Origin: Promethearchaeota archaeon
Lineage (GTDB): Archaea; Asgardarchaeota; Lokiarchaeia; Sigyniarchaeales; SOKP01
Assembly (NCBI GenBank): GCA_019058445.1
Contig: JAHPZA010000003.1
Location: 292,819-356,818 of the forward strand
DNA: 64,000 nucleotides
Direction of reading: 5' to 3'
Below the pieces are notes generated by a model. The model was not told the origin of the DNA, did not search any database, and worked only from the letters and a program-made list of their open reading frames with translations. Within the stretch, counting starts at the first letter, position 1. Every line of letters starts with the position of its first letter. A program made the translations under genes and the position numbers. Shown here piece by piece: positions 36,855 to 39,411 of the stretch.

Positions 36855-36901
36855 ATATCCAGAACCCTTGCTGGGTTGTCATCGTGCGTCTCATTTTTTT
36901 T
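36855..36901 (-). ncRNA. SECIS-3, 3' half (separated from its 5' half by the IS)
   Basis: Minus strand AAAAAAAAUGAG-AC-GCACGA-UGAC-AACCC-AGCAA-GGGUU-CUGGAUAU, homologous to the 3' halves of SECIS-1 and SECIS-2. Confidence 0.75.
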
Positions 36902-38316
36902 CCTTTTTTTAAGTAGAAAACCATATCTTTTAGGAAATGGATGATCTTGTATAAAAATTATTAATCCCCTTCAGTTCTTACTTTTTTATAGAGCTTCAGT
37001 CAAATATTTATAATAGGATATCAAAAAAGGAGGATAACTCTTGAAAATTAACAAAACAATGAAGCTTCGGCTCTATCCGACCAAAATCCAACGAGAACTG
37101 TTGAATAAGACATTTGGCTGTTGCCGTCTTCTATGGAATCAGATGTTAGCGGAGCGCAACGAGGTATTTCAAGAATTTAAAGAGAACTCCGAAACCTTGA
37201 GGAATTATAAGTATAAAAAAGAAAAGGATTATAAACAAGAATTTGAGTTTATGAAAGAGGTCGATAGCAAGGCTTTACAATCTACAACCCTATACCTAAT
37301 AGAGGCATTCAATAATTTTTTTAATGGGTTAAAGGTGTCCCGAAAAGTAGGATATCCGAGGTTTAAATCAAAAAAAAGTAAACAATCCTATACTACTTAT
37401 AACATCAATAGCAATATTAAAATTGATTTTGACCTAAAACATATTAAGCTCCCAAAAATTAAAAAATGGATAAAGTATAAGGATGATAGGAGTTTTACCG
37501 AGCCAATTCGTCATGTAACCGTTTCGAAAACCAAGAGCGGACACTATTACTTGGCCATTTTGATTGAAAAAGAGCTTGATATCTCACCTCTAACGGAAAT
37601 CCACGAAGATCGTATAGGAGCATTTGATATGTCAGCCACAAGGTTTCTGATTAGTGAAACTGAAGACTTTTCCAATCCTAGGTTTTATAGATCCTCAGAA
37701 GCGAGGTTAAAGCAATTGCATCGCCAATTATCTCGCAAAAAAAAGAATTCTCAAAATCGACTGAAAACCAAGCTGAGACTTGCTCGAATGTATCAAAAGA
37801 TTTGGTATCAAAAATATGATTGGACACATAAAACGACCCTTAAACTAGCTAATAAATATGATGTAGTAGTCTTAGAAGACCTTAACATCCAAGGAATACA
37901 AAAATTTAACAGCGGTCTATCTAAATCCGTGACATTAGATTTTTCATGGCATCAGTTTAAAACATTGCTAAAATATAAACTTGAATGGCGAGGAAAGCAC
38001 TAACTAGAGGTGAATCGTTTTTTTCCTTCAAGCAAATTATGCTCTGTATGTGGGCATAAAAATATTGATTTAACATTAGCAGAACGCGTATGGGTATGTA
38101 CTGAATGCGGTACACAACATCATAGAGATAAAAATGCGTCAAGCAATCTAAAAAGAGAGGGTATTCGTCTCTTACAAGAAAGAGGAATTAAAGTCATTAT
38201 TTGACCTACCGTTGGGACGACGGGAAGTTACGCTTGTGGAGATCTTGTAAGACACCCTTTAAGGTGCTTTGGTCAGGGAAACAAGAATCCAGATCCTATA
38301 TGGACTGGTAGTTCAA
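36902..38316 (+). mobile_element. IS200/IS605-family tnpB-only (IS1341-type) element
   Basis: Related subterminal hairpins at 36921-36940 (CCATATCTTTTAGGAAATGG) and 38289-38308 (CCAGATCCTATATGGACTGG). Right end has a GAAT guide (38285-38288) and a TCAA terminus (38313-38316). No tnpA. Left junction is uncertain between 36902 and 36913. Confidence 0.85.
37041..38204 (+). pseudogene. tnpB: TnpB RNA-guided nuclease interrupted by in-frame TAA at 38001-38003
   Basis: LRLYPT..FGCCR, YPRFKSK, RuvC acidic motifs (AFDM, VLEDL). After the stop, in the same frame: [11 protein letters not shown]...CTECG..HHRDKNA. Confidence 0.88.
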
Positions 38317-38336
38317 GCAAGATTCATTCTAAACTG
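38205..38336 (+). ncRNA. Putative TnpB omegaRNA (right-end RNA) plus flanking guide
   Basis: GC-rich structured tract (CCTACCGTTGGGACGACGGGAAGTTACGCTTGTGGAGA...) between the tnpB stop and the TCAA end. The guide is inferred as the following ~16-20 nt. Confidence 0.65.
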
Positions 38337-38341
38337 GATAT
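38317..38341 (-). ncRNA. SECIS-3, 5' half
   Basis: Minus strand AUAUCCAG-UUUAGA-AUGAA-UCUUGC. AUAUCCAG pairs 8/8 with CUGGAUAU (36855-36862) and UCUUGC pairs 5/6 with GCACGA on the other side of the IS. Confidence 0.75.
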
Positions 38342-38468
38342 CTAATTATAAATATTTATTAATTGCATCCGTTAGTATATCTATTTAGGATTTATTAATT
38401 TAAAATATGGAAACAATTTATTGGTTAAAATGATTTAAATGTTTAATAACACTCATTAATTTTATAAA

Positions 38469-38533
38469 CCTTAATCCTTGGCTAGGATGTCAGCAAATGT
38501 CTAAAGTTTTTACATTTGCCTCATTCGTTAAGG
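38469..38533 (-). ncRNA. SECIS-1, eukaryote-type, in the 3' UTR of the UxxU peroxiredoxin-like gene
   Basis: CCUUA-ACGA-AUGAG-GCAAAUGU-AAAAACUUUAG-ACAUUUGC-UGAC-AUCCU-AGCCA-AGGAU-UAAGG. It has the AUGA/UGA quartet core, an 8-bp helix II and an A-rich apical loop. Confidence 0.9.
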
Positions 38534-38582
38534 AAAGAATTTAAAATTTCAGTTAAGGAATGGTGTATCGATTATCATTTAC

Positions 38583-39098
38583 TTATAAATATTTATCAAT
38601 CGCATCAGTTAATATTTCTATTGTGGGTCTATCTTCTTTACTACCTATATAATACCAAACTATTTCTCCATTTTTTTTAATAAGTACTTTAGCAGGAAGA
38701 GCATTATTAACTTGTAAATCATCATGACCATCGGTTTTTTCTGTTACAAACATATTATATGATTTAGCTATTTTTCCGCCTTTATCAGGGATAGTCGTGA
38801 AATTAAAATTATTAACTTCTTTCATCTTTTTCAATCGTCTAGTACTATCTTTTGCTATTGCTATTAACTTTACGTTGCGTTTTTCGAACTCTGACATATT
38901 TTTGGTTAAGTATTTAAAGTGTTCTATTCAATATACTCACCATCCCCCTCTAAAGAAGTCGATTAAAACCCCTCGATGGTTCTCAAGCATAATCGCTAAA
39001 TTTGCTTCATTCCCATCAATGTCGGTTGTATCGATAGTAGGAGCTTTGGAACCAATAGGTAATCCTTTATTAGGTATAGAAATATGTAAATCTGTCAT
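38583..39098 (-). CDS. AhpC/TSA (peroxiredoxin-like, thioredoxin fold) selenoprotein with UxxU motif, 171 aa
   Basis: MTDLHISIPNKGLPIGSKAPTIDTTDIDGNEANLAIMLENHRGVLIDFFRGGW-U-VY-U-IEHFKYLTKN continues in frame into the 104-aa ORF (38583-38897). TGA at 38937-38939 and 38928-38930 occupy both Cys sites of the family FxRGxWCPxC motif. A SECIS lies downstream. Confidence 0.92.
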
Positions 39099-39193
39099 TA
39101 TTAACAATAAAAACAATAGAAATAAAAAGGATATTGAAATATTTTAAAAGAAAAAATAAAGAAAAATGATTAATTGTGTGTAGCGTTTTTTAA

Positions 39194-39260
39194 TCCTTAA
39201 TCCTTGGCTAGGCCGTCAGCATACGTCTATATTTTATACGTCTGCCTCATTCTATTAGGA
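39194..39260 (-). ncRNA. SECIS-2, eukaryote-type
   Basis: UCCUAAUAGA-AUGAG-GCAGACGU-AUAAAAUAUAG-ACGUAUGC-UGAC-GGCCU-AGCCA-AGGAU-UAAGGA. Helix II has a compensatory U-A to C-G change relative to SECIS-1. Confidence 0.88.
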
Positions 39261-39297
39261 ATTAAATTAAATTTTTTAATTACGTCAGATATATGAT

Positions 39298-39411
39298 TTA
39301 TCATTTAAATCTTAGTTCCATGAAAAATACAAATCTTCGACAGTTAGGGCAATAATAGTATCCACTCGTATTCTCTTGTATTGTATGTCCACACTTTTGG
39401 CATATTATCAT
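39298..39411 (-). CDS. Zinc-ribbon microprotein with putative C-terminal selenocysteine (37 aa)
   Basis: MIICQKCGHTIQENTSGYYYCPNCRRFVFFMELRFK-TGA-TAA. The TGA aligns to a Cys of the 36110-36262 paralog. The SECIS-2 core is 50 nt downstream. Confidence 0.72.

Follow-up and report, generated by a model that had tools for sequence, protein, structure and literature searches.

Elements and genes at the locus

The selenocysteine insertion sequence (SECIS) elements of Lokiarchaeia are considered here as RNA signals of the 3' untranslated region (3' UTR) that would let UGA be read as selenocysteine (Sec), taking as starting point a locus within 64,000 nucleotides (nt) of a Promethearchaeota archaeon genome (GenBank assembly GCA_019058445.1, contig JAHPZA010000003.1, positions 292,819 to 356,818 of the forward strand; this whole stretch is referred to as the window). 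Two complete elements, copies B and C, occur on the minus strand, the former behind a Prx-like (AhpC/TSA) selenoprotein gene and the latter behind a short zinc-ribbon open reading frame (ORF); copy A is the 3' half of a further element, split by an insertion sequence (IS). Besides a core that reads as a kink-turn (k-turn), copies B and C carry an extra hairpin on the 3' strand, and comparison with relatives establishes this hairpin as a real, conserved part of the SECIS in this lineage.

The Prx-like gene encodes its CxxC site as UxxU (motif W-U-V-Y-U, with a UGA codon for each U), and copy B lies in its 3' UTR, about 56 nt past the stop codon. Copy C is found 50 nt past the zinc-ribbon ORF and about 100 nt ahead of the Prx-like start codon. 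Both copies have AUGA, a 9-bp stem, an 11-nt A-rich loop ending in AG, and GAC, an exact match to the element published as lokiSECIS, and in both the arms follow in the order helix I, GAAUGAG, helix II, loop, helix II', (U)GAC, AGCCA-loop hairpin and helix I'. The two copies are 80% identical over 85 nt and are thus recent duplicates, not independent copies.

Two covariance models were used to score the elements. The first, R1, was built from the 36-nt core alone and holds no flank information, a restriction adopted because circularity was to be avoided in judging the flanks; the second, R2, describes the full three-arm structure, and 110 elements were aligned to it. No Rfam family, SECIS or any other, reached its gathering score anywhere in the window. 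A simple sequence pattern stays within chance (3 matches against 1.2 expected, with 3 reached in 11 of 100 shuffles), whereas the covariance-model scores and the comparative data exceed it. Coordinates and scores are collected in Table 1.

Table 1. Features of the locus, in window coordinates; R1 and R2 are the core-only and the full three-arm covariance models, and L116 is the related locus described in the text.
Feature	Position	Strand	Parts	Evidence
SECIS copy B, complete	38464..38537	minus	AUGA 38524-38521; GA 38491-38490; C-stem pair G38526:C38489; helix II 38520-38512 with 38500-38492; loop 38511-38501; side hairpin AUCCU-AGCCA-AGGAU 38488-38474; helix I 38533-38528 with 38474-38469	Sequence; R1 46.7 bits; R2 47.7 bits, E 2e-11
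SECIS copy C, complete	39190..39264	minus	AUGA 39250-39247; GAC 39217-39215; side hairpin CCU-AGCCA-AGG 39212-39202	R1 43.4 bits; R2 41.9 bits, E 1.4e-9; ortholog in L116
Copy A, 3' half of IS-split SECIS	36855..36901	minus	Loop remnant A8-UGAG 36901-36890; helix II 3' strand 36889-36881; GAC 36880-36878; side hairpin AACCC-AGCAA-GGGUU 36877-36863; helix I 3' arm CUGGAUAU 36862-36855	92% identity to 3' part of intact L116 element
5' half of split SECIS	38315..38341	minus	Helix I arm AUAUCCAG 38341-38334; spacer UUUAGA; AUGA 38327-38324; helix II strand (AUCUUGC) from 38323	93% identity to L116; perfect 8-bp complement to 36862-36855
IS200/IS605-type tnpB-only insertion	36902..38316 (ends +/- a few nt)	plus	tnpB frame 37041-38204; in-frame TAA 38001-38003	Pfam; comparison with uninterrupted relative
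Prx-like (AhpC/TSA) selenoprotein gene	38583..39098	minus	UGA codons 38939-38937 and 38930-38928	Translation; Pfam AhpC-TSA E 6e-22
Remnant of second Prx-like gene copy, last ~20 codons (~60 nt)	38340..38402	minus		Local alignments to intact gene 3' end and L116
Zinc-ribbon ORF, 37 codons (CxxC...CxxC)	39298..39411	minus	Terminal F-K-UGA, UGA 39303-39301	Translation; seven homologs in relatives

The initial annotation of this DNA described three SECIS copies, each reading helix I, GAAUGAR, helix II, loop and extra hairpin. This holds for copies B and C, and an extra hairpin is indeed present in all three, with the correction that the pairing given for copy C (GGCCU/AGGAU) contains a G.A mismatch, which leaves CCU/AGG as the effective stem. 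In copy A the core had been misassigned: both the core and the 5' strand of helix II are lacking, and the sequence scores 12.3 bits with R2, where the training sequences and the relatives' elements reach 27-96 bits, save for a single weaker match with 24-25 bits. The 'AAUGAG' seen there belongs to the end of an apical loop (A8-UGAG), and the 3' strand of helix II, GAC, the hairpin and CUGGAUAU come after it. The matching 5' half (AUAUCCAG-UUUAGA-AUGA-AUCUUGC) is located beyond a tnpB element of about 1.4 kb, and the two halves, once joined, fold as three arms. A related-locus search with the Prx-like protein retrieved one true relative, in the metagenome-assembled genome Promethearchaeota DZ2S.378 (locus L116), where an intact counterpart, 93% and 92% identical to the 5' and 3' halves, respectively, stands directly after the Prx-like ortholog. 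Upstream of copy A there is only a gene remnant, so that, in contrast to what is expected of a SECIS, it does not follow a UGA-containing gene. Two other readings of copy A were discarded, that of a repeated IS end, as blastn finds the sequence once in the genome, and that of a degenerate whole SECIS, which is ruled out by the model score and the intact relative.

The insertion point of the tnpB element, which encodes the domains HTH_OrfB_IS605 (E 4e-17) and OrfB_IS605 (E 2e-14), coincides with the apical-loop end of the SECIS. Its frame holds an in-frame TAA ahead of the zinc-finger part, and the element is therefore probably a pseudogene. A single other copy occurs in the genome, distant and with 63% identity (C4:89118-90215).

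The simplest history of the locus would involve a tandem duplication of a block extending from copy C across the Prx-like gene, then the deletion of most of the second Prx-like gene copy, of which the remnant of about 60 nt would have been left between copy B and the split SECIS, and finally the loss of the ancestral Prx-like SECIS to the IS insertion. Copy B resembles copy C (80%) and not the ancestral Prx-like element. Judged from these comparisons, the Prx-like gene apparently exchanged its own SECIS for a borrowed one, copy B, which is a duplicate of copy C of its neighbour.

The k-turn core and the side hairpin among relatives

Seven R1 matches were found in this genome, all of them after UGA-containing ORFs: the Prx-like gene, the zinc-ribbon ORF, two VhuU paralogs, a protein named 'CUU' after its motif and two 'S-U..C' paralogs. 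All 60 genomes searched in the family of this archaeon contain R1 elements, and 107 distinct elements with fetched flanks from the family genomes formed the set in which the hairpin was tested. In this set a UGA-containing ORF lies upstream of 100 elements, with a median distance of 10 nt from the ORF end to AUGA. AUGA itself occurs in all 107 elements and is matched by a 3' GA in 106 and by AA in one, figures to be read with the fact that the scan filter demanded [AG]UGA and GA/AA; the final G and the A-richness of the loop are likewise partly imposed by the filter. Covariation was detected in helix II.

In both VhuU paralogs the reading frame enters the SECIS and the stop codon is the UGA of the AUGA core (L001:4125-4285, plus strand; C3:156311-156347, minus strand). 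Several VhuD genes, with a gap of 4 nt, have a UAG stop within the 2-bp C stem described below.

The nucleotide two positions before AUGA (-2), which is outside the R1 search model, pairs with the nucleotide that follows the 3' GA (+1) in every one of the 107 elements, either as G-C (89) or as A-U (18) and never in mixed states. Pairing extends to -3:+2 in 84 of 107 elements (shuffles 48.7, maximum 65), and there is no signal further out. The three nucleotides of the bulge are R-A-U, the G.A/A.G pairs are invariant, and the pair next to them is U.U in 30, G.U in 19 and A.C in 13 elements, together 62 of the 107. The covariation at -2:+1 makes the core, at the level of sequence, a textbook simple k-turn with a 2-bp C stem: a Watson-Crick C helix, a 3-nt bulge and G.A/A.G pairs that lead into a non-canonical (NC) helix.

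The hairpin begins 0-2 nt after the C stem (counted from the nucleotide after the 3' GA, the linker is most often 2 nt) and is separated from the 3' arm of helix I by 0-1 nt, most often 0. In 100 of 107 elements a hairpin with 4 bp or more starts no further than 4 nt from the GAN; the corresponding values were a mean of 45 and a maximum of 57 for shuffled flanks, 54 for distal flanks and 38 for 5' flanks. For stems of at least 5 bp the count is 74 (shuffles 20, maximum 36). Folding without constraints gave a similar picture, as the minimum-energy structure contained the side hairpin in 83 elements (shuffles 36) and the complete three-way junction in 56 (shuffles 11). The stems comprise 79 distinct sequences, and in an alignment of the 34 CUU-class elements made by sequence only the hairpin is 88% paired, with both-sided changes at four of six pairs. 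The loop, 3-8 nt long and variable around this dinucleotide, contains GC in 84 of 106 hairpins and in 5 of 106 control windows. The hairpin was seen across eight gene classes and four families. RNAalifold on MAFFT alignments, either of all elements or of the VhuD class, recovered only helix II; as the hairpins vary in offset and length and misalign, this is no evidence against them.

Helix I, which would close the three-way junction, differs between classes. It is strong in 72% of the VhuD elements (controls 7%) and in 69% of those from mixed small classes (controls 9%). The k-turn with its 3' hairpin is thus the universal unit, and the three-way junction depends on the class, being found in VhuD, VhuU, PrxL and others.

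These data bear on most of what the initial annotation had proposed. An extra covarying hairpin as a SECIS module of the lineage is borne out by its presence in 100 of 107 elements, the 79 stem sequences and the both-sided changes, and the expectation that covariance-model matches fall 3' of UGA-containing genes was confirmed (100 of 107; all seven in this genome). The three-way junction, which had been assigned to the element as such, applies to the classes just named; in CUU elements its closing helix I has little support, and in S-U..C elements none above the controls. Lineage specificity calls for qualification. At E <= 0.001 R1 detected the core in all 25 family genomes searched and in none of 125 genomes from 26 other families of the phylum, a result that carries no verdict on more distant Asgard lineages, and weaker matches, 11 elements with the hairpin layout kept, were found in three further families belonging to this taxonomic class; in these the -2:+1 pair is retained in 10 of 11, once as U-A.

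The proposed role of the side hairpin

The explanation we consider probable is that of a Lokiarchaeia-type SECIS built of a k-turn core, a 2-bp C stem and a 3' GC-loop hairpin stacked on it, with helix I closing some of the classes. The core is laid out as C stem (-2:+1, -3:+2), R-A-U bulge, tandem G.A/A.G and often a non-Watson-Crick pair, most often U.U, with the 9-bp helix II forming the non-canonical arm, and the lower part thereby departs from the published picture of an internal loop with a lower stem. After the C stem, in most cases across 0-1 linker nucleotides, the 3' strand forms a hairpin of 4-7 bp, the stem of which is free to vary while the loop nearly always has GC. This hairpin is predicted to stack under the short C stem, on the same strand, and it may in this way offer the k-turn a stable helical platform made from 3' sequence alone. 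Such a platform could be required, as the median distance from the stop codon to AUGA is 10 nt and the 5' flank, being part of the coding sequence, could not be counted on to form a long lower helix. The GC loop would be displayed as a contact for the Sec-insertion machinery, whether aSelB, a protein of the L7Ae family or another factor.

Several points weigh against this reading. The unconstrained minimum-energy fold of copies B and C themselves is a two-way alternative with a competing CCUU/AAGG pairing, favoured because AAGG is present twice. In the R2 alignment of 110 elements pairing reaches 84.6% for helix I and 85.9% for the side hairpin against about 45% in slid controls, but this alignment is fitted to the model and leans to it, and 38 hairpins fell in insert columns. 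The A-U state at -2:+1 comes mainly from one gene class (15 of 18). A strong helix I is seen in 26% of CUU-class elements against 9% of controls, a weak signal, and in 13% of S-U..C elements against 12%, which is the control level. The elements are related to one another, and the counts overstate their independence. Finally, a tRNA-Sec gene was not found with Rfam RF01852 or aragorn in this genome, which is 92.6% complete; the gene may be unassembled or atypical.

The closest competitor holds that the hairpin is chiefly a sequence-specific dock for a Sec factor (aSelB by way of its C-terminal domain, a member of the L7Ae/L30e family or another protein) and that architecture is secondary. We regard this as possible, with the balance tilted against it. 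It agrees with a stem that is free to change and a loop GC that is kept (84 of 106, controls 5 of 106), and with a core that resembles the box C/D-type k-turn, RUGA(U)...(U)GA. Box C/D-type k-turns are the classic target of L7Ae. Archaea are without SBP2, and no SECIS binder is known in the accessible part of the literature. The varying length of the loop (3-8 nt) and the varying sequence around GC speak against docking as the chief role, as does the fact that an L7Ae-like gene was not found beside SepSecS or aSelB in this genome. A bolder version, in which a Lokiarchaeial SECIS-binding factor or a lineage-specific surface of aSelB could not do without the GC-loop hairpin as its recognition module, and in which the hairpin also replaces the long helix I of eukaryotic SECIS elements, is put forward as speculation that we would sooner doubt than adopt. 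If it were true, Sec recoding in Asgard archaea would use an RNA-protein interface unlike SBP2 and the methanogen systems, and the hairpin would be a handle for fishing out the archaeal SECIS-binding protein.

It is unlikely that the hairpin is a separate element of the mRNA 3' end, acting in termination, processing or stability next to the SECIS and outside the Sec signal. Runs of at least five T occur within 15-70 nt downstream of 59 of 107 elements and upstream of 7 of 107, which places the SECIS at the mRNA 3' end, and the weakness of helix I in about half of the elements also fits this idea. On the other hand, the hairpin stands 0-2 nt from the covarying C stem, a covarying helix I encloses it in the VhuD, VhuU, PrxL and other classes, and copy C retains it though the next gene begins about 100 nt downstream. 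To our knowledge, a conserved GC loop is not a feature of archaeal terminators.

A true k-junction sensu Lilley, with the third helix on the non-bulged strand opposite the bulge, is very improbable. The third helix is indeed on the non-bulged (3') strand, but two Watson-Crick pairs (-2:+1 and -3:+2) separate A1n from the hairpin, so that -1n precedes the third helix, and the reading is disfavoured by the pairing of the nucleotide after A1n with -2 in every element. Least credible of all is the published two-way model of an internal loop and a lower stem, with the hairpin as a non-functional inheritance or a folding artefact of AT-rich sequence: copies B and C can fold so and 42% of shuffled AT-rich flanks yield a hairpin of at least 4 bp, yet this model has to face the large enrichment over shuffles, distal flanks and 5' flanks, the pairing kept across 79 stem sequences with compensatory changes in the sequence-only alignment, and the occurrence in eight gene classes and four families.

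Selenoprotein candidates and comparison with known systems

The genome encodes SepSecS (380 bits; C6:1056455-1057600) and an aSelB with an aSelB_III domain (C6:1064111-1065010). Three ORFs adjoin SepSecS/aSelB (L118:2069-2746, minus; L118:6769-7221, plus; L118:9531-10403, minus), two of them without a Pfam family and one with a zinc ribbon only; it is possible that they are counterparts of the Sec-linked hypothetical protein described in the accessible text of Huang et al. (2024).

The initial annotation anticipated that a scan might reveal hidden selenoproteins, and the core-only search did retrieve candidates, in at least four protein families that fall outside the archaeal lists in the accessible parts of the published papers. 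The zinc-ribbon ORF ends in F-K-UGA followed at once by UAA, and its seven homologs (L018, L022, L039, L071, L078, L104 and L116) all end [FY]K-TGA-TA[AG], with a SECIS 30-50 nt downstream. These features make the family a candidate selenoprotein with Sec as its last residue; the archaeal selenoprotein families given in the accessible text of the 2024 and 2026 papers do not include it. Its members have 37-40 residues and are often followed by a Prx-like gene.

The CUU class, of about 156 residues and with the motif C-U-U or U-G-U-U, has no Pfam match and its own SECIS (in this genome L002:3576-4043, plus strand, contig C6). It is the commonest owner of the 107 elements, with 34 members, 33 of the loci being in relatives, and tandem copies are found in several genomes. 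The two tandem S-U-x-x-x-x-C paralogs, of about 120 residues, are likewise without a Pfam match (L003:428-787 and L003:1406-1762, both minus strand, contig C10); their SECIS elements have A-U, not G-C, as the C-stem pair, and the class has 15 members in relatives. In the relatives L017, L096 and L098 a SECIS accompanies small ORFs of membrane-like character that contain G-G-G-U-x-C.

The Lokiarchaeial SECIS has been cited as a link between archaeal and eukaryotic Sec decoding, and the archaeal SECIS-binding protein is not known. A precise consensus (k-turn, 2-bp C stem and a 3' GC-loop hairpin at a fixed position) gives better search models for hidden selenoproteins, and it specifies which mutants to make and which baits to use in looking for the binding factor.

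The elements described here belong to a known type, the lokiSECIS (Mariotti et al. 2016, PMC4989117), which in the accessible text corresponds to the Asgard type I eSECIS-like structure (Huang et al. 2024, PMC11227280). As reported there, the features in common are AUGA before a 9-bp stem, an 11-nt loop that starts with adenines and ends in (A)G, and GA after the stem, together with the position shortly downstream of the genes for PrxL, VhuD and VhuU and the absence of SBP2. The accessible texts describe the core, upper stem and loop, as well as an 'internal loop and lower stem' in which no nucleotides are conserved (PMC4989117, PMC11227280). The side hairpin, the three-way junction and the -2:+1 pair are unmentioned in the main texts of Mariotti 2016, Huang 2024, Sun 2021 and a 2026 review, although their figures or supplements may draw the hairpin, and the main texts of Mariotti 2016 and Huang 2024 do not mention the 3-nt bulge reading or the GC loop either. 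A full-text literature search for SECIS together with 'three-way junction' returned no mention of such a SECIS. Relative to these main texts, new structural detail on the known lokiSECIS consists in the -2:+1 pair, the reading of the core as a k-turn whose C stem has 2 bp, and the 3' GC-loop hairpin.

The SECIS of Methanococcales and Methanopyrus is also an archaeal 3'-UTR Sec signal, and its VhuD versions have AUGA...GAC and a short extra stem; it differs in a core with a GAA_A bulge and in a GC-rich upper stem, and a side hairpin is not described for it in the accessible part of the literature. Eukaryotic SECIS elements have a long helix I, a plain internal loop and a longer helix II, and are recognized by SBP2. 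With form 1 of the eukaryotic SECIS the elements described here share the 3'-UTR location, the AUGA/GA non-Watson-Crick core and the unpaired adenines of the apical loop; unlike it, they have a 2-bp C stem, a side hairpin off the 3' strand and a facultative helix I.

Among RNA motifs, the box C/D k-turn has the same 3-nt bulge ending in R-U, the tandem sheared G.A pairs, the frequent U.U next to them and the Watson-Crick pair that closes the C helix. The likeness is at the sequence level, and the Lokiarchaeial elements differ in being located in the mRNA 3' UTR, in a C helix of 2 bp before branching and in having no guide function. In the k-junctions of the thiamine pyrophosphate (TPP) riboswitch and of DUF-3268, the third helix follows A1n via the unpaired c1 and c2, and -1n comes after the third helix (PMC4005666, PMC10573300); they are not folded by L7Ae (PMC4005666, PMC10573300), which need not hold for the SECIS elements. 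Both have a k-turn and a third helix on the non-bulged strand that together make a three-way junction, and what sets the Lokiarchaeial SECIS apart from the k-junction is the two C-helix base pairs that come before its third helix.

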